Positions 8,066 through 50,046 of a DNA stretch of 64,000 nt are shown piece by piece. This DNA comes from Escherichia phage vB_EcoM_JNE01. The position numbers were made by a program, and so were the translations under genes. The DNA lies in sequence record OR670491; one strand, given 5' to 3'. Within the stretch, counting starts at the first letter, position 1. Each line of letters begins with the position of its first letter. Below the pieces are notes generated by a model that saw only the letters and a program-made list of their open reading frames with translations, did not search any database and had not been told where the DNA came from.

Positions 8066-8800
8066 ATGAGCATAACTGATATATCCAATAAAGTTATTAA
8101 TGAATTGGTACAGAGAGGTTTTGCATCACCTATGATATATGGTTCGTGGTGCTACTATGAAAAGTACAAATTCGATGACAAGTATCCTAATGACATTGAT
8201 GTGATTAACATAGTACATGAAGAGTCGGAGGAAGGTGAATTTACTTTGGAGTTGAATTGTATTGACATTCCAGTTAATGTCGAATGCATGACTCTTCAGC
8301 ATTTTAGACAAGATTACAAGACTCCACAAATTAAGTACTTGGGTATAGGTCTTGCAGGTTCCAACAATTCATCAATCAATCACATCTTTTTATATCTAGG
8401 TGCAGTTCACAGTTACTATGCTGAACTTCCCAAAAATGTTGTTCGAACTATGTGCAGTTCATCATCGTCTAAGGCATTTAACAAAGGTGTTAAGAAACTG
8501 ACACTTGACGATGACTACGATAAAGATTTGGGTCTAAAAAACATCTGGCATAGCATTCATTTCATTTCTATAGTAGATTCATATTACAAGTCCTACGATG
8601 ATAGTCTTAATGTTGCAGAATATGCGTTGTATACTGAATATAACATGTTGCGTTGTATCCCGATGCGTGATATGATATATAAAATTTACGAGGAAACTGA
8701 AGGTTCTCTTCAGGATAAGGCTCAAGCAGTCATAGACTATGCAAAGCCTTTACGTAACAAATTAATGACAGAATTTCGTGCCTTATACCCAAAGGAGTGA
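8066..8800 (+). CDS. hypothetical protein (possible minimal nucleotidyltransferase fold)
   Basis: 244 aa; N-terminal YGSW...DIDVI loosely fits GS...DxD of Pol-beta-type NTases; RBS ggaaag. Confidence 0.45.
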   Translation: MSITDISNKVINELVQRGFASPMIYGSWCYYEKYKFDDKYPNDIDVINIVHEESEEGEFTLELNCIDIPVNVECMTLQHFRQDYKTPQIKYLGIGLAGSNNSSINHIFLYLGAVHSYYAELPKNVVRTMCSSSSSKAFNKGVKKLTLDDDYDKDLGLKNIWHSIHFISIVDSYYKSYDDSLNVAEYALYTEYNMLRCIPMRDMIYKIYEETEGSLQDKAQAVIDYAKPLRNKLMTEFRALYPKE

Positions 8801-8867
8801 TATAATGAAAAAACATACAGGAAAACAGCCGTTCCATTAGGTTAATTTAACTTAAAGGAGACTATAT

Positions 8868-9392
8868 ATGTTTTTTGAACAATCTTTTATTCTGTACTAC
8901 GATTCTGGTAAAGTTGAATACACTGATAACCTTTTTGAAGTTATCAACCGAATGGGTGGAGTTGATAGTTTTCATGCTGCAATGAAATTCAATCTAGGTG
9001 AATTCAACAAACGTAACGGTAAACTGTATAATATCAGTACTGGATTTTTCTTGTGCAATGCTAAAGGCTTGATGATTTCCCCTGATCTGTTATACGATGA
9101 GTATCAGATTGCATGGGATGAATTTTGGAAGAATAAGCGTAAAGCTATTGATGACAAATTCAAACACAACAGGTCTTGGCGTTTTAAACACAGTCAAGTT
9201 CGTTACAAACACCCACATACTCAACAAGAACGTCGCATGGCATGTGCAGTTCAAAAAGATGAGGGTGAACCTAGTATTCGTGGTAAACGCAAAATGCGTT
9301 CTATCCCTTCTTTATGGGATGATAAAAAGACAAGACACAGTACTGGATGGAAAACTAGTACTAAGCGTAAACATCAATACAAAGGGAGCTAA
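8868..9392 (+). CDS. hypothetical protein with basic C-terminal tail
   Basis: 174 aa, RBS aaggag; C-terminus rich in K/R/H. Confidence 0.45.
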   Translation: MFFEQSFILYYDSGKVEYTDNLFEVINRMGGVDSFHAAMKFNLGEFNKRNGKLYNISTGFFLCNAKGLMISPDLLYDEYQIAWDEFWKNKRKAIDDKFKHNRSWRFKHSQVRYKHPHTQQERRMACAVQKDEGEPSIRGKRKMRSIPSLWDDKKTRHSTGWKTSTKRKHQYKGS

Positions 9393-9420
9393 TGCTCCCT
9401 ATTTTTATGGATACAATAAA

Positions 9421-9759
9421 ATGAATACCAATGACCGACACACAATTATAGTAGAACTAGGCTACATTGAAATTGAAAATTGTAGTATTGATAAAATGAT
9501 TGAAGTACTACAAAAGTATCGTTCGGAATATGACGGATACATGTCACTCGTCCCTGAAGGTGGGTATAGTGGTTTTGACGGTTATAAAATCCTTTTATCA
9601 CGAGATGAAACTGATGAAGAAATTATTGCTCGTCATGCAGCAGAAAAGAAACGTAAAGAGGATGCTGAACGTACTGAAATGAATCGTTTAATGCAAAAGA
9701 AATCATTGAATGCTTCTCAAAAAGAAACTCTTATTAAATATATCCAGGAATATATGTAA
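9421..9759 (+). CDS. hypothetical protein
   Basis: Coding-looking C-terminal part of ORF-track 9097..9759; N-terminal extension overlaps previous gene and looks non-coding, so start placed at ATG 9421 (uncertain). Confidence 0.4.
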   Translation: MNTNDRHTIIVELGYIEIENCSIDKMIEVLQKYRSEYDGYMSLVPEGGYSGFDGYKILLSRDETDEEIIARHAAEKKRKEDAERTEMNRLMQKKSLNASQKETLIKYIQEYM

Positions 9760-10415
9760 TGAAAAATATCACACAAGAGAAGATCCTGTACCTCGCAAAA
9801 TATAATGGTGGTTTTAATATCCAAAGCTGTGAGTACACTGGAAATATGGCTAAAATACTTGACTCTCTATTAAGTCTAGGATTGATTCGTTGGGATACTA
9901 ATGAACTTTGGTATGAATATGCTGGACAGCAATGGGAAAGTGATTATGACCATGCAATCCATTCATATACCATTACTAAAGCAGGTGAAGTTCGTTTAGC
10001 CATTATGCGTTGTGCCTATACCTATAAAAACTTCAAAGGTGAAGAGAAACATATCCGACGTAATCAAGAACTCATTCATCTCATGGGTGAAGCTGGTATC
10101 AAGATGGATGTTTTGTTGAATGAACCACGTTGGGTTAACAATCTCACCAAAGCAGAGTCGAAAGCACTACGATACATTACAGAACAAGAAGTTCAACCTT
10201 CTAAACCGGAAAAAGTACTACAAGGTGATGGTGAGTTAAGTCTTCAAAATGTGTTCGAAAGTACCAGTACTGAAAGTATTTCTGATATATCAGTCCAGAT
10301 GGCAATCAAAGCTATGGAGCTTTTTAAGACCCAATACGAAGGTACAAGTGCAGATGAAGTAGAACGTGAGTTCATTACTCGTGTACAAATTGCGTTACAT
10401 AAAAATAAAAAGTAG
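9759..10415 (+). CDS. hypothetical protein
   Basis: 218 aa ORF with ATG overlapping upstream stop. Confidence 0.5.
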   Translation: MKNITQEKILYLAKYNGGFNIQSCEYTGNMAKILDSLLSLGLIRWDTNELWYEYAGQQWESDYDHAIHSYTITKAGEVRLAIMRCAYTYKNFKGEEKHIRRNQELIHLMGEAGIKMDVLLNEPRWVNNLTKAESKALRYITEQEVQPSKPEKVLQGDGELSLQNVFESTSTESISDISVQMAIKAMELFKTQYEGTSADEVEREFITRVQIALHKNKK

Positions 10416-10421
10416 GTTCAT

Positions 10422-10601
10422 ATGAAAATTTTACTTGTACTAATAGCCGTAGTTATGGTATTATCTTGTTCAGTTAGTAATGGTAAGTACATTTACATGT
10501 CTGCGTTCGAGGAAGCACCGACAAACTGTGTACAAACTCATTCAGGTCTTATGCTAGTTAATGGCAGACCTTCAATTGAATACTTATGTATAGGTGATTA
10601 A
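10422..10601 (+). CDS. small putative lipoprotein
   Basis: 59 aa ORF not in track: MKILLVLIAVVMVLSCSVSN has signal peptide plus lipobox-like LSC. Confidence 0.35.
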   Translation: MKILLVLIAVVMVLSCSVSNGKYIYMSAFEEAPTNCVQTHSGLMLVNGRPSIEYLCIGD

Positions 10602-10604
10602 ATT

Positions 10605-10835
10605 ATGAAATTATTGTGTATTGCTATTGTTTCTTCTATTGTATTTCTAAGTGGGTGTGCACCTAAAGTTAATGAGATGGATGCTGAACTCATCCGTCTT
10701 GGATTGACTAAACTCAATCACGATGGTACACTGTATGCATGTCATGAAATGCGTCACGGTCAAGATCTGAACTTAATGTGCAGAAAGATTGTGAATCGTA
10801 AACGTATTAATACAATCCCAAGGGATGTACAATGA
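10605..10835 (+). CDS. small putative lipoprotein
   Basis: MKLLCIAIVSSIVFLSGC, signal peptide with lipobox LSGC. Confidence 0.5.
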   Translation: MKLLCIAIVSSIVFLSGCAPKVNEMDAELIRLGLTKLNHDGTLYACHEMRHGQDLNLMCRKIVNRKRINTIPRDVQ

Positions 10836-11053
10836 AAGCAAAAGAATTAGCAGAATTACTGTTACAACATCCTGACGCAGAAGTTATTGTTTGTGATGAA
10901 GAAATGTTTTTAGTTAATGCGTCTAAAGTAACGGTTTATGAAAAAGATGAGATGATAAAAGAAGGTGATGGTAGTACCAAATCGGAAGACCTTACTTCTC
11001 TTGGAATCTACGATTATCCAATTTGTAATACACAAGTTATTTTTATTTCATGA
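10832..11053 (+). CDS. hypothetical protein (N-terminus paralogous to 34374 gene)
   Basis: MKAKELAELLLQHPDAEV versus MKAKDLAALLMQNPEMEV at 34374. Confidence 0.45.
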   Translation: MKAKELAELLLQHPDAEVIVCDEEMFLVNASKVTVYEKDEMIKEGDGSTKSEDLTSLGIYDYPICNTQVIFIS

Positions 11054-11060
11054 GGAAACT

Positions 11061-11420
11061 ATGAGTGATTATGTTGGATTCCTATACCGCTTTGGTGTTG
11101 CACAAGAAAAACACATCATCCGTATGCCAGCATATGGTGAGAAAGGATGGTATAAGAGTATTATCAGTGTAGGTGCATTTCGTGACCGTGAAGCAGTATA
11201 CTTCCTTAAGAGTCTCAGTGATGAACCTATTCGCTTCTCACTTCAGCGTTTATCAGAATGGGAGGAAAGTAATAAAATCACAGCAGAATCAATGCAAGCC
11301 GTATGTGGTATTCAAAATTATGTCCATCCATATGACAATCTTCCTTGTACTGTGCATAATTCAGTGTTTGACTTTTATGCAGCAGTAGGGTATGATTATA
11401 AAAAGAAACGTTACATTTGA
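11061..11420 (+). CDS. hypothetical protein
   Basis: Start refined to ATG 11061 with RBS gagga; ORF-track 10965 start overlaps previous gene. Confidence 0.5.
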   Translation: MSDYVGFLYRFGVAQEKHIIRMPAYGEKGWYKSIISVGAFRDREAVYFLKSLSDEPIRFSLQRLSEWEESNKITAESMQAVCGIQNYVHPYDNLPCTVHNSVFDFYAAVGYDYKKKRYI

Positions 11421-11439
11421 ATTTCAATGGGGATTTAAA

Positions 11440-12057
11440 ATGACAGCAGCCGACAAGTACTGGTGGATTTACAACCACGCCTCATTCGTCAACAAAGATT
11501 TAGTATATCCAAAGATTGAGATTGAACCACATAACGTATGCCCTGATACCAATCGCATTGAAGACCATGAATATCTAAATACAAAGGTTCAGTACTGGGT
11601 AGAGTTGATGACCCCTGAATTCGATGAAGATTCACAAAACTGGATTCTTTCACACGATTATCAGTTAGATTGTGGTGGTGATACCTTTGAAGAAGCAATT
11701 GATGCAGTGTACAATAAGGTTTTGGAACGTTACGGTACATACAAACAAGAAGATGCAGATGCGTTATTTGATTCATTGTTTAAAAAATCATCACAACCAA
11801 ATCCAGCATACCAGCAATTTAGCAATCCACATGAACGATTATACAGTGCTACGTTTCTGTTGTTGAATTACGATGACAAGTTCTCGCTGATTGATAGCAT
11901 AGATACTCGTAAAAATACAATAAAGTCCTTGCAGAAGTACATTGCTTCTTGTACAATAGAGCAATCAGAGAAAGCAAAGATTGCATTAGAAGATGAAGAA
12001 TGTTTGCTTTGGTTGCAAGAACTATCACTTAAAACAGGCGTGGATTTATTACTATGA
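11440..12057 (+). CDS. hypothetical protein
   Basis: Start refined to ATG 11440 (RBS gggga); 206 aa. Confidence 0.5.
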   Translation: MTAADKYWWIYNHASFVNKDLVYPKIEIEPHNVCPDTNRIEDHEYLNTKVQYWVELMTPEFDEDSQNWILSHDYQLDCGGDTFEEAIDAVYNKVLERYGTYKQEDADALFDSLFKKSSQPNPAYQQFSNPHERLYSATFLLLNYDDKFSLIDSIDTRKNTIKSLQKYIASCTIEQSEKAKIALEDEECLLWLQELSLKTGVDLLL

Positions 12058-12422
12058 ACAGTAAACTGGAAAAACTAATTGAAGAACTTCGACGGATGCC
12101 GCCAATTGAGCAAGTTGGCAATTACAAGCGTTATCGCGTTATAGCACGAGCACTGGATAAGAAAGGTCGAGTACTGGCAACTCGTACCAACTCTTATACA
12201 CAAACTCATCCTAAACAGAAAGGGTTTGCGATTCGTGCTGGACGTCCACAAGGTGAGTTTCTTCATGCTGAAATTTCATGTTTACTGGCTGCACGGGCTG
12301 AAGTTCATACTCTGTTGATTGCACGAGTCAGTAAAGATGGCATTCCAGTTCCAGCTAAACCATGCGAGATTTGCACTTTAGCTATCCAAGAATATGGAGT
12401 AAAAGAAATTATTCACACATGA
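12054..12422 (+). CDS. cytidine/deoxycytidylate deaminase family zinc-binding protein
   Basis: HAE (HAEISCL) and PCxxC (PCEIC) zinc-binding motifs of the CDA fold; 122 aa. Confidence 0.6.
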   Translation: MNSKLEKLIEELRRMPPIEQVGNYKRYRVIARALDKKGRVLATRTNSYTQTHPKQKGFAIRAGRPQGEFLHAEISCLLAARAEVHTLLIARVSKDGIPVPAKPCEICTLAIQEYGVKEIIHT

Positions 12423-12643
12423 AAACTGAATACTACGATAAACATACTGTATTCTATACTAAATCCACTATACTGTATTATTACATATTTGAACCTAATT
12501 ACTGTTTACAGATAACAACCTACGCAAATGGTAGATTTAAAGATGTAAACTTCCCATTAACCGATTTAGCAAAACATATCAGTACTGAACATTTCATTAA
12601 TTTAGTACAAGTATATTGTAAACCAAACCCTAACAACACTTAA
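12419..12643 (+). CDS. hypothetical small protein (uncertain)
   Basis: ATG overlaps deaminase stop (ATGA) but region is AT-rich and repeat-containing; may be non-coding. Confidence 0.25.
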   Translation: MKTEYYDKHTVFYTKSTILYYYIFEPNYCLQITTYANGRFKDVNFPLTDLAKHISTEHFINLVQVYCKPNPNNT

Positions 12644-12658
12644 ACTAAGGAGTCAATA

Positions 12659-13021
12659 ATGGCTAAAACAATTTCAATGAAAGACGATACCGTTGGTATT
12701 CGCAAAGATGGTTTCTATGGTTTCTCATGGACTACCCTATTCTTCGGTCCAATCCCTGCACTATTCCGTGGTGATTTCCTAACATTCCTTGGTGTAGTAG
12801 CTGTGTACGTAGTTCTTAACGTATTCACTATGGGTATTCTCGGAACCCTAGCTATGGTAGTATGGGCGTTCATGTACAACAAATATTACACCCAAAGCCT
12901 ACTCAAGAAAGGTTTTAAATTCAATGGCAGTGATGAAGACAACAAAGAAGCAGCAATGTATTTGCATGTGGAATTGAACTCTCATAACACGGTTGATAAA
13001 AACAAAGGTCCAGAGGTCTAA
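12659..13021 (+). CDS. membrane protein
   Basis: 120 aa with two hydrophobic segments; RBS aaggag. Confidence 0.5.
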   Translation: MAKTISMKDDTVGIRKDGFYGFSWTTLFFGPIPALFRGDFLTFLGVVAVYVVLNVFTMGILGTLAMVVWAFMYNKYYTQSLLKKGFKFNGSDEDNKEAAMYLHVELNSHNTVDKNKGPEV

Positions 13022-13200
13022 TGGAAATCTTTAAAAAAGATTATGATGGGGAAAGTCTTTATGATATGCAGCGTGACGTACACGAAGCGTTTGATTCAAG
13101 ATTTAACCCATTAGCCGACCAGATTCCACAAGATGAATTTGGTTTTCAAGAAGGTACATTCACAGTAACTATTACCTGGACACCGGATGAGAATAATTAA
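13021..13200 (+). CDS. hypothetical small acidic protein
   Basis: 59 aa ORF, ATG overlapping upstream stop (TAATG). Confidence 0.35.
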   Translation: MEIFKKDYDGESLYDMQRDVHEAFDSRFNPLADQIPQDEFGFQEGTFTVTITWTPDENN

Positions 13201-13303
13201 ACTTTTGATTGGCTTATTAGCAATGATATTGTTTTTTATATGTTCCGCTCCAATTAATACTATGGTGTTGATTTGGGCAGTTGTAATTTTAGCAGTACTT
13301 TAA
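13187..13303 (+). CDS. small hydrophobic peptide (uncertain)
   Basis: 38 aa, single predicted TM helix, followed directly by terminator. Confidence 0.25.
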   Translation: MRIIKLLIGLLAMILFFICSAPINTMVLIWAVVILAVL

Positions 13304-13327
13304 AAGCACCCTAGTGGTGCTTTTTTC
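13304..13327 (+). terminator. intrinsic terminator
   Basis: GCACC-CTAGT-GGTGC then TTTTTT. Confidence 0.6.
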
Positions 13328-13464
13328 ATTTGTACAAATAAAAACCTATCTACCCTTTCATTGATTCAGGTCAAAAGAAACATAGCGTTCTGGAGCTATA
13401 ATGTTGTCTTGTGGAGTTAAATAACTTCACCCCAGATGAATTATAGAATACAAGGAAGAATTAA

Positions 13465-15267
13465 ATGCAACTAGATAAACTTTACACGGACGTGACTAAT
13501 TTCCTCAATCAGAACAATTCTGACCTAACCAACGAAAACGCGAATAAGGATGCTAAATGTGTCAATACCCATAGAGACTTGCTTGCAGGTATTCTTTCTA
13601 AACACTATTCACAAGATGTTATTGCACCCGACCTGATGCAATGGCATAATGATGGATATGGTCATATTCATGATTTGGACTACTATATTAGCCCGTTAAC
13701 TAACTGTTGCTTAGTAAATTACCCTGATATGCTCAAGAACGGTTTTACTATTGGCTGTGCCAAAATTGAAGAACCAAAGAGTTTCAGTGTAGCGTGTACA
13801 GTACTGACACAGATTGTTCAAGCTGTTGCTAGTTCCCAGTACGGTGGTCAATCACTGGCACATATTGATGTTGGTTTAGAACCATACGTCGAAAAGTCAT
13901 GGAATAAGCTATTAGCTAAACAAAAGAAATACAATCTAAGTACTGAATATATTGAAGAAGAATTACGTAAAGAAGTATATGATGGTTGTCAAACTCTCCT
14001 GTACCAGACTAACTCTATGATTAGTACCAATGGTCAGGCTGCATTCATTTCTTTAAGCTTAGGACTGAATACTTCCAAATTTGGCAAACTAATCACTGAA
14101 CAGTACTTAAAAGTACATGAAAATGGTTTAGGTGTTAATAAGATCACTCCGGTGTTCCCTAAAGTGATTTTCTTTTTACAAGATGGCATTAACATGAATC
14201 CAAAGGATATTAGCTACGATATGAAGCAATTGGCTATGCGTTGTGCTTCTAAGCGTATATACCCTGATTTCGTTAGTGTTCCACTAAATCACAAGGTTAC
14301 TGGGGCATCAAGTGCTGTTACTCCTATGGGATGCCGAAGCTTCTTAGGTAAATGGGAAGATGCTAATGGAAACGAACAGTACAATGGTCGCTTCAACTTA
14401 GGTGTAGTGTCTATCAACTTACCGCTAATTGCTCTTGAAAGCACTTCAGATGGTGATTTCTTTGATAAGATAGACGAGCACATGAATATTGCGTACAGAG
14501 CACAGATGAACCGTGTAGAGCGTTTAAAAGGTACTAAGGCTAAACAGAACCCTATCCTGTTCATGGAAGGTGCTCTTGCTCGTCTTGGTGCAGAAGAAAC
14601 TATTGACAAACTCTTCTACGATGGTTATGCTAGTATCAGTATTGGATATGTAGGATTAGTTGAATGTTCAGAGATTTTGACTGGTTCAATCAGTAAAGAG
14701 TTCTGCATGTCAGTACTGAATTATATGAAAGTGAAATGTGATGAATTCAAGAATGAGAGCAATATAGCCTTTAGTCTATATGGAACTCCTGCTGAATCAT
14801 TATGTTACAAGTTTGCTCGTTGTATCGAGGTAAAACACCCATCAGTACTTAAACGTGACTACATTACAAACTCATTCCATCAACCTGTATGGGTTGAGAG
14901 TACTCCATTCGAGAAGTGGGTTTATGAAGAAGGATTTGCATATTTGAGTGCAGGTGGTAACATTAGCTACGTCGAGTCACCAAATCTTTCAAACAACATA
15001 CAAGCACTAGAAACACTAATAAACTACGCATATACTAAGATTCCTTACTTTGGTATCAACCAACCAGTGGATCGTTGTTATGAGTGTAATTTTGAAGGTG
15101 AGTTCAGTGTTGATAAGCACGGGTTCCATTGTCCAGTTTGTGATAACAGAAATGAGAAAACCATCTCTGTAATTCGTCGTGTATCTGGATACTTAGGAAA
15201 TCCGTCTTCCCGTGGTTTTAACAAGGGTAAACAGCAAGAATGTTGTGAGAGAGTACAACACAAATAA
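13465..15267 (+). CDS. nrdD: anaerobic ribonucleoside-triphosphate reductase (class III RNR)
   Basis: 600 aa; C-terminal Zn ribbon CYECNFEG...CPVCDN and glycyl-radical motif RVSGYLG; overall NrdD-like. Confidence 0.95.
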   Translation: MQLDKLYTDVTNFLNQNNSDLTNENANKDAKCVNTHRDLLAGILSKHYSQDVIAPDLMQWHNDGYGHIHDLDYYISPLTNCCLVNYPDMLKNGFTIGCAKIEEPKSFSVACTVLTQIVQAVASSQYGGQSLAHIDVGLEPYVEKSWNKLLAKQKKYNLSTEYIEEELRKEVYDGCQTLLYQTNSMISTNGQAAFISLSLGLNTSKFGKLITEQYLKVHENGLGVNKITPVFPKVIFFLQDGINMNPKDISYDMKQLAMRCASKRIYPDFVSVPLNHKVTGASSAVTPMGCRSFLGKWEDANGNEQYNGRFNLGVVSINLPLIALESTSDGDFFDKIDEHMNIAYRAQMNRVERLKGTKAKQNPILFMEGALARLGAEETIDKLFYDGYASISIGYVGLVECSEILTGSISKEFCMSVLNYMKVKCDEFKNESNIAFSLYGTPAESLCYKFARCIEVKHPSVLKRDYITNSFHQPVWVESTPFEKWVYEEGFAYLSAGGNISYVESPNLSNNIQALETLINYAYTKIPYFGINQPVDRCYECNFEGEFSVDKHGFHCPVCDNRNEKTISVIRRVSGYLGNPSSRGFNKGKQQECCERVQHK

Positions 15268-15274
15268 GGTACAT

Positions 15275-15604
15275 ATGTGCGATTTAAAACCAATAGTTGT
15301 TAACAAATACAAAGAACAGTATGATGTGTACATTGGTCGTGGGTCGAAATGGGGAAATCCATTCACCCACATTAAAGACAAGGAAACTAAAGCAGAATTC
15401 ATTGTTGCGACCCGCGAAGAGTCAATTGAGAAGTTCAGAGACTATATTCTGGAACGTATCGAAAAGGGTGAAGTTCAAATTGATGAACTCCTTGAACTCG
15501 CTGGGAAACGTCTTGGTTGCTTTTGTAAGCCCAAATCATGTCATGGTGATGTTCTTGTGGAAATAGTGAGTGCTATACTAGATGAACTATCAGACGATAA
15601 TTAA
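15275..15604 (+). CDS. DUF4326-like protein
   Basis: VYIGRGSKWGNPF motif; start refined to ATG 15275. Confidence 0.45.
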   Translation: MCDLKPIVVNKYKEQYDVYIGRGSKWGNPFTHIKDKETKAEFIVATREESIEKFRDYILERIEKGEVQIDELLELAGKRLGCFCKPKSCHGDVLVEIVSAILDELSDDN

Positions 15605-16052
15605 AGACGATTTAGTTAACGGGGAGGGAGTACGATGCTCTCTCTTCGTGAGTGGTTGTAGCCACGGATGTGATGGGTGTTTCAATGAAGAAGCATGGGA
15701 TTACAGAAGTGGATCAAAATTCAGTACTGCTGAAGTTGAAGTTATTCTTAAAGAGTTAGATAAGCCATATGTTACCGGATTATCTTTACTTGGGGGAGAT
15801 CCTCTTATGCCAAAGAATATCAGTACTGTTATTGATTTATGTAAAACTGTAAAAGAATTACATCCTACCAAAACAATTTGGTGCTGGAGTGGCTATACTT
15901 TAGAAGAGATTAAACTAAATCATTCTAAGGATATTCTTCAGTACTTAGATGTTTTAGTAGATGGTAAGTTTATTGAATCCGAAAAGAATCTAAGATTACC
16001 TTTTAGGGGTTCTAATAACCAACGTATTCTTCACAAAGACAAAGATTTTTAA
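15582..16052 (+). CDS. nrdG: anaerobic RNR activating protein (radical SAM)
   Basis: CSLFVSGCSHGCDGC radical-SAM cysteine cluster; immediately downstream of nrdD. Confidence 0.9.
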   Translation: MNYQTIIKDDLVNGEGVRCSLFVSGCSHGCDGCFNEEAWDYRSGSKFSTAEVEVILKELDKPYVTGLSLLGGDPLMPKNISTVIDLCKTVKELHPTKTIWCWSGYTLEEIKLNHSKDILQYLDVLVDGKFIESEKNLRLPFRGSNNQRILHKDKDF

Positions 16053-16057
16053 AATGT

Positions 16058-16082
16058 GGCTTCCCTAGTGGAAGCCTTTTTG
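16058..16082 (+). terminator. intrinsic terminator
   Basis: GGCTTCC-CTAGT-GGAAGCC then TTTTT. Confidence 0.65.
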
Positions 16083-16156
16083 CGTTCAAAGGAACTGTAG
16101 GTACGCGAATATGTGCATAAATACATGAACAAATATCTATAATAAAAGGGATATAT

Positions 16157-18856
16157 ATGTCAAAGAAAATATATGGTGGCTTAGATGTCACACATAATGT
16201 TACAGTGAAAGGGAAACGTACTGTTCAAGGTATCAATGATCAAGTTTTTGATTCCAATGGTAACATGGAACTTGATACTTATACTAAAGAAGAAATTCTT
16301 GACGTAATTAGTATGATGCCTTTGTCACATTATGGTACACATAACTATCTACCTGCTGGTGTAAGTGGTGACTTCAACGGAGCATCAGAAAACACATCAC
16401 AGCGTAGAAACAAAATTCTATTAGAAGATGACGGAACATTAGTAATGTTGCGTGCTGGTACAAACGGTAGTGTGGAAGGTCTATTCTACTCTTACCTAGC
16501 GAACGCATTAACTATTGAAGATATGGGTCGTACCGTGAATACTGGTAAGCAGTATCAACCAGGGTTTTTGGGTTCCACAAAAGTTGCTTTCGGTTTATAT
16601 AACACTGATAGTAATATAATGATTGGTCAATATAAAGATACAACTAATAGCACTACTGGTTATTTTGTATCTATTACAAACAATACACTTGATGATACTC
16701 AGCACTCAGGATTTATCATTAATCAGTACACTGACCTTTCACCACAAGGTAACATTGAATATGCAATGATGGCAGAAGATGGTTCAATCTATGTGTTTAG
16801 TTTAGATGTTGCAGATAATAAAATGCACATGATTGTACAGCGTATTGTGTTTAATATTAGTGCTGGTACATACACTACATCACGTATATCTGGATGGACT
16901 ACAAAAACATTCTACAATACAACTATCAGTGCTAATACTAATATAGTATTAACCAACAGAACTTATTCAACTGATATTGTAGATAAACCATATGCTCTTG
17001 TACCAACTAACCTACGTGGTATTGGTATATACATGACTTCATATGATTTATATGTTGCACAACAGCCTGGTACTCAGAACTTCCGTTTCCGTTTAAATGG
17101 GGACTTATGGGCGACAATGGCAGACTATAATACACGTCCACAACATAGTTTTAGTTTCAATTTCAATATGAGTACTAAACAATGTACGTTAGATACTGGC
17201 AATGACATTGGTTCATTCCAAGCACCTATCGTTATTACAAATACTGGGACTCAATTAGTTGCTACTGGTAATGCTCTAAACAAAGATGATTTTTATAACC
17301 ACAGTGGTGCACGTAACATTTATAGTGGATATTACTATTCAGTAGAAGGTGTTGCTTTCTGTACAATATGTCCAAACCTAGCAGAACCATTACACATGGA
17401 AAAAGGTCATTACCCAGCACAATCTGTTTATAGCATGATAAATGTTAGAGCAGTGAGTTGTACAGATTTTCGTGATGGAAGAGTTGGTCCGACATTTGGT
17501 TCAGCAGTAGGGTCATATATCAACGGTGTTGAATTGTTACCTGATAACAGTACTAAACAGTTCTCTCGTGCTTCCGGTACAGGTTCTTACCAACCATCAT
17601 ATGCAGTGCATAAGAGTACTCCTAACTTTACGTTCAAATCACTTTCAATGGGGACTATTCAGGGTTATGAGCCAACAGCAGAACGTGCAAACGTAGCTGA
17701 TACGACCAACAACCGAGTATTCATTAGTTCAATTTCAGGAAGTACAGTTACAACTAATGGTGGTGTACTAATATGTGGTCAACGTTACTCACAGTCGTTA
17801 TCATATGATAAGTACATGAATGGTACTAACGTAATTAGTGTTACTCAATCAGTACTTGACAACTTCAGAACAGCAGAGTATGCTAAAGTTGCTAGTTCAT
17901 GGAACCTATCAAGTGCATCGGGTAAAGACATGTCGTTGTTTGTTCCACAGCAATCTGACATTCCAGCGTTTGTGTTTCTCAGTTCAGTGACGAACAATAA
18001 CCAGAACTATATTCGTGTTGCAGAAGTTAATGTTAATACAAGAGTAGGGAACATTACTAGTATTACATTTAAACGTTTAGTTTATGAAAACGTTCATGGT
18101 GATAACTTCGTTTCGAATACATCAGGTTCATTCTCTTCTTCATCTGTTGGTATGACAATTTATGATGGTGGTTCATTCTATTTCTTAGGTGGTTCTGATC
18201 CATTAACACATAATACTATCGGTAACACAAATACACATATGTTCCGTGCTTATGTTACTAAATCCACTGCAACTATTGATAGCTTCATTATTGCGGGTGG
18301 TCACGCCAGTTATGAACAAGGTGCTCAACCAGCAGCGTTGCCTGGATTGGGTTTTGGTATTTTTGCTGCAATTGACTATTCTAACAAAATGACATTCGTA
18401 CCTTTTGGAACAACTATTGCTGATTATAACGCATGGACACAGAAAGCGACTGCAATAAACTTAGTATCACAAGACGTTGCACAAGGTTTTATCGTGTACT
18501 TCACCGAAGAAACACCAGTAATACTATCAGGTAAATCATTTACTCTACCTATTTCGAATATTGATTTAACAACTGTAAAAGCTAATCCAGCCAATACGAC
18601 GTTTTATCTTTATATTAAAATGGAGCAAGGTAATGTTAAATACCACATAACTACTGAAGTTATTTCAGAAGCTGGTACTTCTGCATATAACGTATTTTGG
18701 ATTGGAACAATTAAAACTAACTCTCTTCAAATTGAAACAGTAAATGTTGAAAAACGTTCTCGTTTGGATATATTTGGTGCATCACTAGAAGCAGCAGGTT
18801 CTTCATTCCCAGTAAGTTATGGTTTACCATCACAAACAGGAACTATCAACTGGTAA
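16157..18856 (+). CDS. long tail fibre protein (paralog 1)
   Basis: 899 aa, Ser/Thr/Asn/Gly-rich beta-rich composition; N- and C-terminal regions shared with the 19473 gene; C-terminal SSFPVSYGLPSQTGTINW. Confidence 0.7.
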   Translation: MSKKIYGGLDVTHNVTVKGKRTVQGINDQVFDSNGNMELDTYTKEEILDVISMMPLSHYGTHNYLPAGVSGDFNGASENTSQRRNKILLEDDGTLVMLRAGTNGSVEGLFYSYLANALTIEDMGRTVNTGKQYQPGFLGSTKVAFGLYNTDSNIMIGQYKDTTNSTTGYFVSITNNTLDDTQHSGFIINQYTDLSPQGNIEYAMMAEDGSIYVFSLDVADNKMHMIVQRIVFNISAGTYTTSRISGWTTKTFYNTTISANTNIVLTNRTYSTDIVDKPYALVPTNLRGIGIYMTSYDLYVAQQPGTQNFRFRLNGDLWATMADYNTRPQHSFSFNFNMSTKQCTLDTGNDIGSFQAPIVITNTGTQLVATGNALNKDDFYNHSGARNIYSGYYYSVEGVAFCTICPNLAEPLHMEKGHYPAQSVYSMINVRAVSCTDFRDGRVGPTFGSAVGSYINGVELLPDNSTKQFSRASGTGSYQPSYAVHKSTPNFTFKSLSMGTIQGYEPTAERANVADTTNNRVFISSISGSTVTTNGGVLICGQRYSQSLSYDKYMNGTNVISVTQSVLDNFRTAEYAKVASSWNLSSASGKDMSLFVPQQSDIPAFVFLSSVTNNNQNYIRVAEVNVNTRVGNITSITFKRLVYENVHGDNFVSNTSGSFSSSSVGMTIYDGGSFYFLGGSDPLTHNTIGNTNTHMFRAYVTKSTATIDSFIIAGGHASYEQGAQPAALPGLGFGIFAAIDYSNKMTFVPFGTTIADYNAWTQKATAINLVSQDVAQGFIVYFTEETPVILSGKSFTLPISNIDLTTVKANPANTTFYLYIKMEQGNVKYHITTEVISEAGTSAYNVFWIGTIKTNSLQIETVNVEKRSRLDIFGASLEAAGSSFPVSYGLPSQTGTINW

Positions 18857-18868
18857 GGGATTACAATT

Positions 18869-26614: not shown

Positions 26615-29410
26615 ATGTTAAACAATAATCCTAATATTGATAATATCGTACAGTTAATTTATGGTCATCACAAATTTCTTGAAAGAAACACTGGTGATAC
26701 AATTGACCCTACTGTACAGCACTATGTAATTAATGAACAAGGCGTATTGGCTAACAACCGTCATTTCATCAATCACTCCGCAATGGAAGGACAACCAAAT
26801 GGTGACGGCACAACAGAAGGTCAAAGTCTCCTTATTCTTGGATACATTTATGCGTATTTGGCAACCAACGACAATTTATTTCTTGAAAAAGCTAAATGGT
26901 ACTGGGATGCATATCATCAGTACTTCTATAATGGTAGAGAATTTCCTGATCCACCAACTCCGTTACAATGCAACTGGATTGTGAACGCAAAGGAACCAAT
27001 TCTAGCAAACTGGCCTTTGGCTGACGACGGATGGCCTACTCACGGTGGATTTAAAGGTATCGAGTTTCCTTTCGTTAATGGTCAATGCAAAGTGCCTCAT
27101 GGTGCTCCATATTATGGTGAGTATATTGATAAAGTTACGTTTGCATTCAAAGGTGCATTGGCATGGAATCAAATAAATGCATCAGTAAAAGCAATATTAC
27201 CTGATGGAAGTACAGATTGGGATAACCCTGGTGAGCAGTATGATGTTGATTGGGTTATAGATTTCTTAGGTCGTAAAGTTGATTGGGATGGAAACATTCT
27301 GGCTGAAGGTTTTGATGAATCTGAAAAAGGTACTGTCCAATTAAAAGACACTACACTCAATGGAACTTATAAACTAAACTTTGCCAACAGACAACCTATT
27401 GAATTTGGTGGTGTTTATATTGAACGTAACCAAATGCAACATAACCGTCCATTACACGTTCCAATTAGTTTAGAGTTTGCTGATAACGCGAGTGATGCCG
27501 AATTATGGTTCAGTGATGCTTCTTACTTGTTATATAAAATAACCAAAGAAAGAAAACATTATCTTGGCTGGAAATGTTCACTACTTACATGTTATGCATA
27601 CGGAGATATTGACGCAAAAGATAAATTCTTCCGTCAAAGTACAATTGTTACTACCCCATTTACTGATGGTATTTCATATGAATATTTCTATCCAAGTACT
27701 GCAATTGCTGAATTTGGAAGAAACTCACTTGGATATATTACAATTAAGCAACAAGAAAGTGCACAAAGTACACTTGAGCAACAGGCTATTTGGTTCAGAT
27801 TGAATACATCGTCCAGCTTAGTTGTTGATTACGGTGGTGTTTGTGTTGATGGGAAACCTTTATCATTTAAACCAGTACTGGAATTATCGAAAACAAAGAA
27901 TGAGCATGATACTGTTCGCTATCGCTGCGGTCTTCCAGAAAGTACCAATAGAGATATCAAACATTCAATAACACCGCTGAGTGCATTTGTTCGTGAGAAA
28001 AAAGATGATGGTTCCCCTTACATTATTGCAGATAGTAGAATTGTAGTTCCGTATGGTTCAGGTACATCAGAAATGTTATATAGTACTGATATTTTAGAAA
28101 CAAGACGAGACACTATTAACCAATTAGTTTGTGGTGAAGATGATGGTGCAGTTATTGGTTTCTGGTTACTTGATTCCGGTAAATCTGAAGTGAAAGCTTT
28201 TACTTATCGTTCATATGAAGATGATTATAACATCCGTATCGTTGATGATAATGGCTGGCGTTGGTGGTGGATGATTCCTGCAACCCACGGTGAATGGAGT
28301 ACAATAGAATTAACTGCTGATACTTTACATTTATCTGGATGGCAACCAAATCACCCTGATGACCCTGATCCTGCTGCTCCGGTATATACAGAATTAGAAG
28401 ATATTACAATTCTCCCTGATACGACTCCAGTAAATGGAGTTGCAGTACTGGATTGGTATTGTTTAAACGAGCTACCAGAACTGTACAACAACGAAGATGG
28501 CGATGACTACACTATGGCATTCGCCATTACAATTGCTGGTGAGAGTGCTTATACGGCTCTTTTAGGGGATTGTGTAATCAAAGATTATTTGCTAAACTCA
28601 TTACATTATACACCAGGAACTATCCCGTTCTCTAACATTACCGACCCATATGCTAGTCAGTACTCTGGATGGCGTGGATTACCATATCCTGGGTATCAGT
28701 ATCCTGTAATCTACTGTTTCGAAGATGTACCAGTTGACCATACACGCCTTGGTAATATGGTTGATTTCATGAAAGATTCTCAAGAGTGGTTTACTTCACA
28801 ATTCGGTACTGTTGGTCCTTGTGCTCAAGCATATGTATGGAACCGTTGGGATAACCTGAAATATGGGGAACCCGATACGTTTACTATGTTACACTGGGGT
28901 GATCAAGCGTGGAGTGGTTATGAACCTCGTGCATTCTTTGGTGCTTGTAGAGCATGGCAAGAACTACATGACCGTGGTGAGGAAGTTCCACAAACAATCA
29001 TTGATTTCTGTGAGAACTGGATTCATTTCTTGATTAAGTTTCAGAAAGACAATGATGGTCGCTCCCCGACGATTTTCAACAAAGATGGTACAGTTGAAGG
29101 TCCAGATTGGGACTTCACCGGACATATGTGTGGATTGTGGTTGGCAGGTGCATGTTGTGCTGGTCTTGCTGGATGTACCATTGAGGGATTAGATGAACTC
29201 GCTGATGGTTTAGTACTGGAACTTCAGAACAACTATGTGGTAGTTTCTCCTGGCTCTGTTATGAACGGTTCATGGAGTCCTGGTGTTCGTGAAGGTACTG
29301 ATAATGGTATGTTCTTCGGATTCTGGGCTGGTGAGATTATGCGTGGTTTAGGATTGTACTCAATGTACCGCCTTAACACACCTAACCGTTATGCTGCATT
29401 TCCTGGTTGA
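26615..29410 (+). CDS. large tail-associated protein, possibly glycosidase-like fibre/depolymerase
   Basis: 931 aa, Trp/Tyr/Gly-rich, follows fibre-like gene with RBS aggag; function not recognisable from motifs. Confidence 0.45.
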   Translation: MLNNNPNIDNIVQLIYGHHKFLERNTGDTIDPTVQHYVINEQGVLANNRHFINHSAMEGQPNGDGTTEGQSLLILGYIYAYLATNDNLFLEKAKWYWDAYHQYFYNGREFPDPPTPLQCNWIVNAKEPILANWPLADDGWPTHGGFKGIEFPFVNGQCKVPHGAPYYGEYIDKVTFAFKGALAWNQINASVKAILPDGSTDWDNPGEQYDVDWVIDFLGRKVDWDGNILAEGFDESEKGTVQLKDTTLNGTYKLNFANRQPIEFGGVYIERNQMQHNRPLHVPISLEFADNASDAELWFSDASYLLYKITKERKHYLGWKCSLLTCYAYGDIDAKDKFFRQSTIVTTPFTDGISYEYFYPSTAIAEFGRNSLGYITIKQQESAQSTLEQQAIWFRLNTSSSLVVDYGGVCVDGKPLSFKPVLELSKTKNEHDTVRYRCGLPESTNRDIKHSITPLSAFVREKKDDGSPYIIADSRIVVPYGSGTSEMLYSTDILETRRDTINQLVCGEDDGAVIGFWLLDSGKSEVKAFTYRSYEDDYNIRIVDDNGWRWWWMIPATHGEWSTIELTADTLHLSGWQPNHPDDPDPAAPVYTELEDITILPDTTPVNGVAVLDWYCLNELPELYNNEDGDDYTMAFAITIAGESAYTALLGDCVIKDYLLNSLHYTPGTIPFSNITDPYASQYSGWRGLPYPGYQYPVIYCFEDVPVDHTRLGNMVDFMKDSQEWFTSQFGTVGPCAQAYVWNRWDNLKYGEPDTFTMLHWGDQAWSGYEPRAFFGACRAWQELHDRGEEVPQTIIDFCENWIHFLIKFQKDNDGRSPTIFNKDGTVEGPDWDFTGHMCGLWLAGACCAGLAGCTIEGLDELADGLVLELQNNYVVVSPGSVMNGSWSPGVREGTDNGMFFGFWAGEIMRGLGLYSMYRLNTPNRYAAFPG

Positions 29411-47382: not shown

Positions 47383-50046
47383 ATGGCAGGAGATCTACTC
47401 TCACCTGGCGTTTCCGTAACAGTAACTGATGAAAGTATGAGTACTGCGTCTGCTCCTGGTACAGTCCCACTATTCATTATCGCAACTGCGGAAGACAAAC
47501 TAGTACCTGGTAGCAGTGCAATCGCTGCTGGTACAACGAAAGCAAATGCTGGTAAACTACAGCTTTTAACATCACAAAAAAGTTCTTTGGACACCTATGG
47601 TACTCCAATTTTCCAAATGAGCAATGGTTCAGTTGTTCAAGGTGACGAACTTAACGAATATGGCCTACATGCAGTGTATTCCTATCTTGGAATTACTAAC
47701 CGTGCATACGTAGTGCGTGCTGACATTGACTTAGCTCAACTAGCACCATCTGCAACTGCACCAACTGGCCCAGTATCTAATGGCACTCTATGGCTTGATG
47801 TTGCTCAATCACAAGTTGAAGCATATGTAGCACGTAAAGACAGCCCAAGCAGTTTCTATGATTGGGAACTAAAAACCGTAACTATCGTATCTTCTGAAGA
47901 AGTTGCTGACGTTAGTACTATCGGTATGAATGTAAATGATCTAGTACTACGCTATAAGCCAAGTAACGGTCAGATGCTAATGTACAAATTTACTGCTTCT
48001 GGTTTGGTACAGATGGAAACTTATCTATCACCAATCAATAAAGTTCCAGTAGGCAGTACTATTGAACAAGGCAATATCTGGATTCGTGATGGCTATACTC
48101 AAAATGGTTCTAACTATTTTGGTACTCGCTTTGTAATTAAACGTTACGCTTCCCTAACTCAAGTTTGGAATACCGTTGCAGCTTATACTGGTAACTCTTT
48201 CCAAGAAATCGAAGCTAAAAGCGGTGCTCTAAGTAGTGCATTTATCGCAGTTCGTTTTGACGATGATAGTAAGAGTTTCTCTTTCTACATTCAAAGTGCT
48301 AAACTTTCTGTAATTAGTGCACCAGCAATGCCACTAGGCGAAACTGTTATTGAACAGGCTGGTGAAGACAGCTATTTAACTTTCCAATTCCTAAATCAAA
48401 CTGTTAAAGTACTAGCAGTACCGCAAGGTAATGTTATTAATACTCAAACAATCGTTGATAACGTGAATAAAAGTGCTGATCTAATTAACAATGGCTTTAA
48501 ATTTAAACGTGAATCTAATGGTGGTTTCGTAGTTACTAACGTTAAAGGTTATAGTTTCAAAATTACCCAAAGTGGTGATGATATTTTTGATGCAACTGAA
48601 ATCAAAAAACTAACTGTTGACAGTAACAACTACTCTCTAATCAACGTTAACAACTTCCGTGTTGATTCTTCTGTGCCACGCAGTACTGCTAAAGAAGGTA
48701 CTCTATGGTATGATTTTGGTAACTCTGACAACCTAACCGTTACTATGTACATCGCTGATGTAGCTAATGACGAATGGGACGTAGTTCAAGAAGACAACAA
48801 ATACGTTCAACTAGACGAACCTGCTGCTGACCGTTTGATTTGGGTATCTCCTAAATCTCAAGGTATCGATGGTTATGACTTCTATCGTAACGTAAATGGT
48901 GAGTGGGTTAAACTAGACCAAACTGACCAAAGTACTCTAAACGGTATGATCTTTGAAGATTTCAACTTCCCTGAACAAGTACCTGCTGCTGCTCTATATC
49001 AGAATGGTATGCTCGCAATCGACCTAGGCAATACCGAAGGTGTTGTTAAGAAAATGGTTAATGGTCAATGGCAAGTAGTTAGTGGTGTTGGTATTGATGG
49101 TAATGGTCTATTTGGTCGTGCTGCACAACGTCAACTAATCGTTGAAGCACTAGCTGCTGTTGTAGTTGGTAACGATGATATCCGTTCCGAATTTATCGAC
49201 TTTAACCTAATCTGTGTTCCTGGTTATGTTGAACTACTAGATGAGTGTGTTACTCTAAACACTGACCGTAAAGAAACTGCTTTCATCGTAACTGATGTTC
49301 CAGCACGTTTGAACCCAACTGGTAACGGTAGTGAAGTTCAAGAATGGGCTACTAACGCAAACAATGCACCAAGCAACGGTTCTGTAGGTCGTACTACTGC
49401 TTATGATTATGCTGCTCAGTATATGGGCTGGGGTCTAAGTACTAACGTTGATGGTGAAGAAGTTGCAGTTCCTGGTAGTACTATTGCAATGCGTACCTAT
49501 GCGTACAGTGATAGTGTTAGCTACGTTTGGTATCCACCTGCTGGTACTACTCGTGGTGTGGTAACTAACGCTTCATCTATTGGCTTTATTAACGACGAAG
49601 GTGAATATCAACCAGTTGTTTATAACCAAGGCCAACGTGATGTAATGTATACCAACAACATCAACCCAATTGCAATGCGTCCTAACCGTGGTTTGCTAGT
49701 TTATGGAGATAAAACTCTATCTGCTAACCAAACTTCAGCACTAAGCCGTGTTAACGTTGCTCGTTTAGTTGTTTATATTCGTCGTCAACTAGAAATCATT
49801 TCCGAGCCATTCCTATTCCGTTTGAATACCCCAAGTACTCGTCAGGAATTCGCTGGTGTAGTGAATAGTTTCCTAGCAGAAATCGTTCAACAACAAGGTC
49901 TATATAACTTCGCAGTAGTTTGTGACGAAAGTAACAACACTTCCGAGCGTATTGACCGTAACGAACTCTGGATGGATATCGCAATTCAACCAACTAAGAG
50001 TATCAACTTCATTTACGTACCAATTCGTATTGAAAAAACTCAATAA
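47383..50046 (+). CDS. contractile tail sheath protein
   Basis: 887 aa; C-terminal YGDKT...RVNVARLVVY...VVCDESNNTSERIDRNEL...IQPTKSINFIY matches conserved C-terminal domain of T4 gp18-type sheath; RBS ggagg. Confidence 0.9.
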   Translation: MAGDLLSPGVSVTVTDESMSTASAPGTVPLFIIATAEDKLVPGSSAIAAGTTKANAGKLQLLTSQKSSLDTYGTPIFQMSNGSVVQGDELNEYGLHAVYSYLGITNRAYVVRADIDLAQLAPSATAPTGPVSNGTLWLDVAQSQVEAYVARKDSPSSFYDWELKTVTIVSSEEVADVSTIGMNVNDLVLRYKPSNGQMLMYKFTASGLVQMETYLSPINKVPVGSTIEQGNIWIRDGYTQNGSNYFGTRFVIKRYASLTQVWNTVAAYTGNSFQEIEAKSGALSSAFIAVRFDDDSKSFSFYIQSAKLSVISAPAMPLGETVIEQAGEDSYLTFQFLNQTVKVLAVPQGNVINTQTIVDNVNKSADLINNGFKFKRESNGGFVVTNVKGYSFKITQSGDDIFDATEIKKLTVDSNNYSLINVNNFRVDSSVPRSTAKEGTLWYDFGNSDNLTVTMYIADVANDEWDVVQEDNKYVQLDEPAADRLIWVSPKSQGIDGYDFYRNVNGEWVKLDQTDQSTLNGMIFEDFNFPEQVPAAALYQNGMLAIDLGNTEGVVKKMVNGQWQVVSGVGIDGNGLFGRAAQRQLIVEALAAVVVGNDDIRSEFIDFNLICVPGYVELLDECVTLNTDRKETAFIVTDVPARLNPTGNGSEVQEWATNANNAPSNGSVGRTTAYDYAAQYMGWGLSTNVDGEEVAVPGSTIAMRTYAYSDSVSYVWYPPAGTTRGVVTNASSIGFINDEGEYQPVVYNQGQRDVMYTNNINPIAMRPNRGLLVYGDKTLSANQTSALSRVNVARLVVYIRRQLEIISEPFLFRLNTPSTRQEFAGVVNSFLAEIVQQQGLYNFAVVCDESNNTSERIDRNELWMDIAIQPTKSINFIYVPIRIEKTQ

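Follow-up and report, generated by a model that had tools for sequence, protein, structure and literature searches.

In the receptor-binding protein (RBP) ORF18 of lactococcal phage p2 (PDB 2wzp, 2x53 and 1zru) and in TssK of the type VI secretion system (T6SS), a shoulder domain trimerises and docks the protein onto the baseplate. The shoulder fold can also make up a stand-alone protein, as in gp22 of Bacillus phage SPP1 (PDB 2xc8). A different arrangement occurs in the jumbo phage phiKZ, whose tandem paralogs gp131-gp135 share one terminal assembly module and whose gp131 carries a distal, C-terminal seven-bladed propeller proposed to bind the host (PMC13250141). Here we describe three tandem genes, which we call A, B and C (positions 16157 to 22199), within a window of 64,000 nucleotides (nt), the whole stretch analysed, from Escherichia phage vB_EcoM_JNE01 (sequence record OR670491). 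The three genes are paralogs in this Asteriusvirus-like jumbo coliphage. With a probability of about 0.6, we favour the reading that they are co-transcribed, ancient paralogs whose products belong to the tail or the baseplate periphery and are built around an RBP/TssK-type shoulder, the propeller insert having been lost in B.

By prediction, A, B and C share the shoulder fold with p2 ORF18, the phage 1358 RBP and the TssK N-domain, without sequence similarity. Unlike in the p2 RBP, the sandwich in A, B and C is C-terminal with no head domain following, and in A and C a propeller block of ~700 amino acids (aa) precedes it, probably inserted in the domain; the host virus here is a jumbo myophage, and trimerisation and docking are predicted by analogy. 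SPP1 gp22 is unrelated to B in sequence (6-7% identity) and is not known to come from a longer paralog, whereas B has an extra 60-aa N-terminal extension and an invariant tail. As an analogy of organisation, the phiKZ atlas offers the closest precedent for the triad, down to a very short gp132 (110 aa) encoded between long paralogs, as B is between A and C. However, hmmsearch --max with profiles A2 and A1 against phiKZ gp128-135, 145 and 146 gave E>=0.14 throughout, and we therefore keep the triad apart from the gp131 family, to which its only link is indirect, through a published 16% identity between gp168 of phage SPN3US and gp131. True homologs of A and C, over propellers plus shoulder, are SPN3US gp168 (A/C profile, E=2.7e-35) and the gp20/gp21 pair of phage Simmy50 (E=2e-113 and 1e-153). 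These differ in length (1151-1727 aa), in having extra N-terminal regions and sequence after the shoulder tail, and in occurring as a single gene or a pair rather than a triad, with no body-less member seen beside them.

Paralogy was evident in both pairwise and profile comparisons. BLASTP aligned A with C in one segment that starts at residue 2 and reaches the end of the proteins (28% identity over 947 columns, E=6e-68), and the centres alone (A 120-760 versus C 123-770) were collinear, with 24% identity over 672 columns (E=8e-15, 63.9 bits; 200 shuffles reached at most 26.2 bits) and with every third of the centre significant by itself. Being collinear homologs, the two centres therefore diverged in place. 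The initial annotation had proposed a swapped central domain between two ends common to A and C; the common ends hold, but homology spans the whole length and the swap does not stand. For B, residues ~78-195 matched the C-terminus of A (33% identity, E=8e-16) and residues 78-192 that of C (39% identity, E=2e-20), and profile-profile comparison of the C-terminal modules of the A and B families gave a probability of 99.9% (E=5.7e-35). N-terminal pairwise similarity of B to its paralogs was weak (29 aa, E=0.003); at profile level, hhalign matched B 1-77 to A 1-71 with a probability of 98.3% (E=2.5e-14). Three tandem genes with common terminal modules are thus confirmed, and neither the terminal nor the central similarity is a low-complexity artefact.

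Conservation is uneven between paralogs and even among orthologs. Inter-paralog identity was 44-46% at the ends versus 18-34% in the centre, and 26-45% within the shared module. The most conserved segment of all three families is a ~30-residue tail holding a C-terminal motif that is nearly invariant across families, G-S-[SA]-[FI]-P-V-S-x-G-x-P-x-x-[TS]-G...W. In the B family, which has 24 invariant columns, the invariant tail residues are R170, G177, P181, V182, S183, G185, P187, G191 and W195; in the N-module of the A family, P55, S57 and G60 are invariant or nearly so. Across orthologs in Turkey5, UE-S1, PBECO4 and phAPEC6, identity was even along A, B and C, and the recombination breakpoints anticipated at module borders were absent from these profiles.

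The shared terminal module is predicted to adopt a shoulder-type fold. Our model of B (22-sequence alignment) contains a confident beta-sandwich at residues 70-166 (predicted local distance difference test, pLDDT, 84-94), preceded by a helix at residues 49-58, and sandwich and helix were superposable on the p2 ORF18/TssK shoulder. Fold comparison scored the lactococcal phage p2 RBP highest (8.7), then the cyanophage A-1(L) tail fibre (7.9), the phage 1358 RBP (7.1), SPP1 gp22 (6.7), two TssK entries (6.0 and 5.3), two entries of the HFTV1 fibre gp42 (5.9 and 5.7) and a phi812 baseplate protein (5.3). An independent Foldseek ranking was headed by p2 RBP (probability 1.00), followed by Mtd, the A-1(L) fibre and SPP1 gp22. 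Because the p2 ORF18/TssK shoulder trimerises and docks, the C-module is best read, by analogy of predicted structure, as an assembly or docking domain, for which a trimerisation role is plausible. On this fold we reject the C-terminal chaperone suggested at the outset, and Pfam recognised no chaperone domain either in the C-terminal module or in the small gene between A and C.

All three proteins stop ~30 aa beyond the sandwich, at ...INW. This tail is unstructured in the monomer models (B 168-195, pLDDT 35-44; A 874-899, pLDDT <50), as are the first 21 residues of B. Because the distant relatives P0107, P0114, Simmy50 gp21 and SPN3US gp168 run on past the tail, it may act as a neck-like linker, ordered only once the oligomer has formed or a partner is bound, leaving A, B and C 'headless'; its disorder in the monomer fits ordering upon assembly, short of proof. 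An exhaustive search with the B-family profile returned 495 representative clusters (E<=1e-3), and among the best 150 of these, 57 were 160-260 aa and 66 were 701-1050 aa long. Since an 'LPxSxYG' motif immediately precedes the shoulder sandwich in distant short relatives, the N- and C-modules are probably one split domain, interrupted in A and C by the propeller block. Loss of such an insert would leave an intact domain, and B could therefore have survived, which would explain why both of its ends were kept.

The central body is predicted to be of beta-propeller type. An AlphaFold model of A (30-sequence alignment; pLDDT 86, predicted template modelling score 0.78) was all-beta and globular from ~86 to 870, with ~50 strands in 700 residues that likely form two propellers, and the top structural match was the lectin AAL. 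As modelled, A is not fibrous; it is globular, a propeller body plus a sandwich. Together with the lack of any Pfam fibre domain at E<=1, this speaks against a classical tail fibre or tailspike; the initial annotation had taken the genes for tail fibres. A role in adsorption is plausible, given the predicted RBP-type domain and lectin-like propellers, and the host-range function called likely at the outset is a candidate one.

Gene B arose by internal deletion. In Pectobacterium phage CBB (Mimasvirus, NC_041878), three full-length genes follow nrdG, namely gp147 (902 aa), gp148 (916 aa) and gp149 (916 aa), and orthology is one-to-one: A corresponds to gp147 (45%, full length), C to gp149 (38%, full length) and B to gp148. 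Both halves of B have gp148 as their best match, residues 1-79 aligning with gp148 1-80 (37%, E=1e-12) and residues 79-195 with gp148 798-916 (45%, E=8e-32), which places the deletion junction at B residue ~79 with ~717 central residues missing. A metagenomic gp148-type protein of 917 aa (P0077) is 51% identical to B over the C-module and 35% over the N-module. Because gp148 is homologous to gp147 and gp149 along its entire length, the three-paralog ancestor had propellers and B lost ~717 residues; the one-to-one orthology makes the triad older than the Asteriusvirus/Mimasvirus split. Asteriusvirus has the short middle gene, as do the Munch/SE_PL Salmonella phages and Escherichia phage A4; the long one is kept in CBB, GAP32, Serratia BF, the Erwinia pEa_SNUABM group, Yersinia fHe-Yen9 and Xanthomonas XbC2.

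The initial annotation correctly described a 195-aa middle gene without a central body, and the CBB synteny derives it from a full-length paralog; 'truncated copy', as it was called, is apt for the absent body but not if taken to mean a remnant. The B family comprises 23 clusters (42-98% identity), all 190-211 aa except one fragmented record, and the long-short-long order with nrdD-nrdG-A-B-C synteny recurs in divergent metagenomic contigs. Against PBECO4 and UE-S1, the ratio of non-synonymous to synonymous divergence (dN/dS) was 0.12-0.15 for A, ~0.28 for B and 0.10-0.19 for C, values that are rough because dS is saturated in these comparisons. Constant length across 23 clusters, invariant columns and this ratio rule out a pseudogene, and on these sequence comparisons B is a conserved, selected gene lacking the central body.

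Judged by divergence among relatives, the triad is moderately fast-evolving, as expected of exposed virion proteins, yet not hypervariable, since its identity to PBECO4 is 62-76% versus 84-95% for flanking metabolic genes (nrdG 84%, nrdD 94%, dCMP deaminase 95%). The genes are also mosaic: A and B are nearer PBECO4 (76% and 62%) than UE-S1 (70% and 57%), whereas C is nearer UE-S1 (82%) than PBECO4 (64%). These opposite closest relatives suggest recombination near the B/C border among Asteriusviruses.

Several observations associate the family with virions and tails. The A ortholog of phAPEC6, gp323c (98.62 kDa), was found in purified virions by mass spectrometry (MS) (PMC7247149). Record MK817115 of that phage lacks annotation of B and C despite intact open reading frames (ORFs) of 195 and ~910-939 aa, so that the two orthologs were probably undetectable in the virion MS. 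Proteomics of mutants assigned SPN3US gp168 to the tail, and the same study noted its resemblance to gp131 of the phiKZ baseplate periphery (16% identity; PMC5105663). In Simmy50 (Erwinia Agricanvirus), gp20/gp21 form a tandem pair annotated as virion structural and adjoin a baseplate assembly gene. We take A, B and C to be low-copy virion proteins, most likely of the tail or baseplate periphery. The searched papers held no description of the A/B/C family, and 'gp131' of the Erwinia RAY paper proved to be an unrelated helicase. In CBB, gp148 and gp149 (9719-15232) are labelled 'structural protein', apparently because they are homologous to proteins of GAP32 or RaK2.

Taken together, our preferred explanation would run as follows. 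A, B and C would be expressed from one transcription unit as low-copy virion proteins of a Rak2-like jumbo myophage, each built round a domain of the shoulder type, which in siphophage RBPs and T6SS TssK brings about trimerisation and docking onto a baseplate. This shoulder would be split, with an N-terminal helix and 'LPLSxYG' strand on one side and the C-terminal beta-sandwich on the other, followed by the ~30-residue invariant tail, which, in the manner of a neck or docking segment, would order only upon oligomerisation or partner binding. Between the halves in A and C, the ~700-residue propeller block would face outward, evolve faster and offer a candidate surface for binding or processing glycans. 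Exactly this block is what the middle paralog has lost in the Asteriusvirus/Munch/A4 lineage; the intact 'bare shoulder' left behind, which is under purifying selection, presumably keeps its position in the assembly, whether by forming a trimer of its own or by joining A and C.

Several points weigh against this explanation. The shoulder assignment rests on predicted structures, the best Foldseek E-value is a modest 5e-3, and the N-terminal helix and strand residues in the A and B models reach a pLDDT of only ~50-70. PDB sequence and profile searches with A, B, A1 and A2 gave no significant match; matches to BLIP-II repeats (E~0.2) were weak and judged to be chance. The shoulder-neck-head order of canonical RBPs is broken, as no head domain comes after the sandwich. 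Propeller matches are generic, with no conserved catalytic signature identified. Coverage of gp323c by MS was low (4 peptides, 5.6%; PMC7247149), gp147-149 are absent from the CBB virion MS table, and a literature search for localisation of the family in Asteriusvirus or Rak2-like phages found none.

How the three proteins assemble, and what B does, bears on the choice between readings. A, B and C might co-assemble through shoulder and tail, as a 1:1:1 heterotrimer or a larger mixed base in which B is a body-less completing subunit. There are exactly three paralogs, kept as a set since before the Asteriusvirus/Mimasvirus split; the presumed assembly modules are what paralogs conserve best and all that B retains; the genes are tightly packed and probably co-transcribed; and phiKZ provides a precedent in a hetero-hexameric base (gp131x3, gp133, gp134 and gp135) made of tandem paralogs with one common terminal module (PMC13250141). 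The phiKZ family is not detectably homologous, however, and the 26-45% module identity between paralogs is consistent with separate homotrimers. Solved shoulder proteins among the fold matches, the p2 RBP and TssK, are homotrimers. On balance, co-assembly is the main alternative, which we treat as a tentative possibility. A bolder version, in which a split shoulder with a ~700-residue double-propeller insertion lets the paralogs co-assemble into a mixed, deliberately asymmetric receptor-binding complex on the phage tail and B sets the number or geometry of the propellers on display, seems to us doubtful; if true, it would be an architecture without a solved counterpart. Alternatively, B could have a non-structural part in assembly, helping A and C to fold or attach as a chaperone or scaffold would, and be missing from mature virions. 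In favour of this, the protein is small and acidic (isoelectric point 4.6), it is encoded between two large genes, like many fibre chaperones, and B has not been reported in virion proteomes, although its missing annotation probably kept it outside the phAPEC6 MS search database. Yet B descends from a full-length structural-type paralog with assembly modules and invariant tail intact, which a structural role fits better; B also has no similarity to known fibre chaperones, and an assembly factor is unlikely.

Other readings concern the propellers and the place of the proteins in the virion. Rak2-like phages carry many depolymerases, and the propeller bodies could be enzymes of this kind, sialidase-, GH43- or GH130-like, that degrade surface polysaccharide rather than bind it passively. 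We consider this rather dubious: the top match is a lectin, matches share 4-10% identity and span five- and six-bladed families of unrelated activities, as is typical of generic propeller similarity, no Pfam glycoside hydrolase (GH) domain was found in A, B or C, and few acidic or basic residues are invariant in the A-family centre (E90, R99, H183, R510 and D740). Placement away from the baseplate, with the proteins as bases or decorations at the sheath or capsid ring positions of 'hairy' appendages in phAPEC6 and CBB, is improbable. The phAPEC6 cryo-electron microscopy (cryo-EM) map shows appendages at three annular sheath positions to which no genes are assigned (PMC7247149), CBB is similar, the triad lies outside the main structural module and gp323c is virion-associated; but the proteins are globular, not ~120-nm filaments, GAP32 has the same triad yet the CBB paper reports no such whiskers for it, the shoulder-fold relatives and SPN3US gp168 indicate the baseplate or tail periphery, and the low gp323c coverage weakly suggests few copies. 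The tail-fibre cassette of the initial annotation, in which duplication and exchange of a central receptor-binding domain would yield alternative host specificities with B as a truncated leftover, would accommodate tandem paralogs with better-conserved ends, evolution faster than the flanking metabolic genes (62-82% versus 84-95%), gene-level mosaicism and propellers as plausible ligand binders. Its 'swap' and 'leftover' parts are already refuted, by collinear centres, the lack of sharp identity breaks at ortholog module borders and a B gene of constant length in >20 clusters; dN/dS of 0.1-0.2 and the non-fibrous models also speak against it, and we hold what is left to be very unlikely.

The favoured explanation provides a useful annotation for an uncharacterised virion family and does not amount to a biological system of a new kind. 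In Rak2-like jumbo phages, 'hypothetical' is the label of most virion proteins, and the A/B/C family has no Pfam model and falls in PHROGs of unknown function, while at least 495 protein clusters contain its terminal module, from jumbo phages of Escherichia, Salmonella, Erwinia, Pseudomonas, Aeromonas and others. Recognising the shoulder domain leads to the hypothesis that these proteins dock at the baseplate periphery and present beta-propellers to the cell surface, which may aid cryo-EM map interpretation and host-range engineering of therapeutic coliphages. Propeller-less B is a natural minimal construct for trimerisation and docking, and it illustrates loss of a whole inserted domain while the carrier domain would stay functional.

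The 6 kb holding the triad are 98.7% identical to Escherichia phage Turkey5 (351 kb) and ~74% identical to PBECO4, 121Q, phAPEC6 and other Asteriusvirus jumbo myophages. The PHROG 3573 profile matched A (E=1.1e-241, profile 73-998 of 1001) and C (E=2.7e-226), and PHROG 26864 matched B (E=2.1e-72, profile 1-195 of 195). A Pfam scan of A, B and C returned no family at E<=1, and tblastn for more paralogs found none within the window. The triad stands 3' of the anaerobic ribonucleotide reductase genes nrdD and nrdG, and consensus scans suggest that it forms one transcription unit, because the intergenic gaps are short (A-B 12 nt, B-C 16 nt), an AAGGGA ribosome-binding site precedes all three genes and terminator-like hairpins mark both borders (Table 1). 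These two hairpins are the only terminator-like sites in 15500-22900, and the UE-S1 annotation also has a terminator at the position matching the one upstream of A.

Table 1. Features of the A-B-C locus (window positions unless another record is named; folds are predicted).
Feature	Position (strand)	Protein	Description
Terminator-like hairpin and T-run	16058..16076 (+)		Between nrdG and A; upstream border of three-gene unit
Gene A	16157..18856 (+)	899 aa, 98.25 kDa	PHROG 3573; ortholog of phAPEC6 gp323c and CBB gp147
A N-module	16157..16369 (+)	aa 1-71	N-terminal ~50 aa poorly modelled; helix 44-53
A N-module motif		aa 53-60	Strand with MMPLSHYG
A central body	16370..18478 (+)	aa 72-774	All-beta, beta-propeller type, ~50 strands, probably two propellers
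A C-module	18479..18853 (+)	aa 775-899	Shoulder-type beta-sandwich (to ~870), then invariant tail ...AAGSSFPVSYGLPSQTGTINW
Gene B	18869..19456 (+)	195 aa, 20.9 kDa	PHROG 26864; positional ortholog of CBB gp148 (916 aa)
B N-module	18869..19099 (+)	aa 1-77	Includes helix 49-58 and LPLSQYG motif, aa 59-65
B beta-sandwich	19100..19366 (+)	aa 78-166	Shoulder type
B C-terminal tail	19367..19453 (+)	aa 167-195	STYRPSTTQKGSSFPVSTGNPAQTGSIGW; best-conserved B segment
Gene C	19473..22199 (+)	908 aa, 98.3 kDa	PHROG 3573; ortholog of CBB gp149
C C-module	21831..22196 (+)	aa 787-908	Shoulder-type sandwich, then tail ...RGSAIPSSTGVPSGTGTRWK
Terminator-like hairpin and T-run	22205..22226 (+)		Directly 3' of C; downstream border of unit
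phAPEC6 ORFs without annotation	8709-9296 and ~9223-12042 of MK817115 (locus L003)		Orthologs of B and C

Upstream of A, at 16120-16156, a TATAATAAA motif ~15 nt before the ribosome-binding site resembles a T4-type late promoter (TATAAATA) and is a candidate for one. Some records of related phages differ in how the three genes are annotated. PBECO4 annotates C from a later start (886 aa versus 908 aa; locus L004, 8382-11042). Sequencing frameshifts probably explain why, in CMSTMSU (MH494197, UNVERIFIED; locus L002, 6001-12019), numerous short ORFs stand in place of the A, B and C orthologs; two of these ORFs carry the label 'minor tail protein'. One divergent metagenomic relative (locus L011, 7589-10319) has two ORFs of 395 and 498 aa in the C position, reflecting either a frameshift or assembly error or a genuine split.

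Downstream of C, the small genes are ~35% identical to PBECO4 and UE-S1, versus 60-95% for their neighbours. In this array (22270-24225), Pfam gave no match and the first two genes are weak paralogs (36.5% over 52 aa, E=3e-7). An RlaP-family (PF10127) nucleotidyltransferase-like gene follows at 24643-25896, with synteny kept even in metagenomic relatives, and a tail sheath gene (PF17482 C-terminal domain) lies further downstream at 47383-50046. Between them, 26615-29410 encodes a 931-aa, 105.5-kDa protein with no Pfam match that agrees in size and approximate position with phAPEC6 gp314c, which is labelled 'tail fiber protein' (105.34 kDa) and was identified in virions by MS; away from the main structural module, this gene and A-B-C would make up a small satellite group of virion genes.

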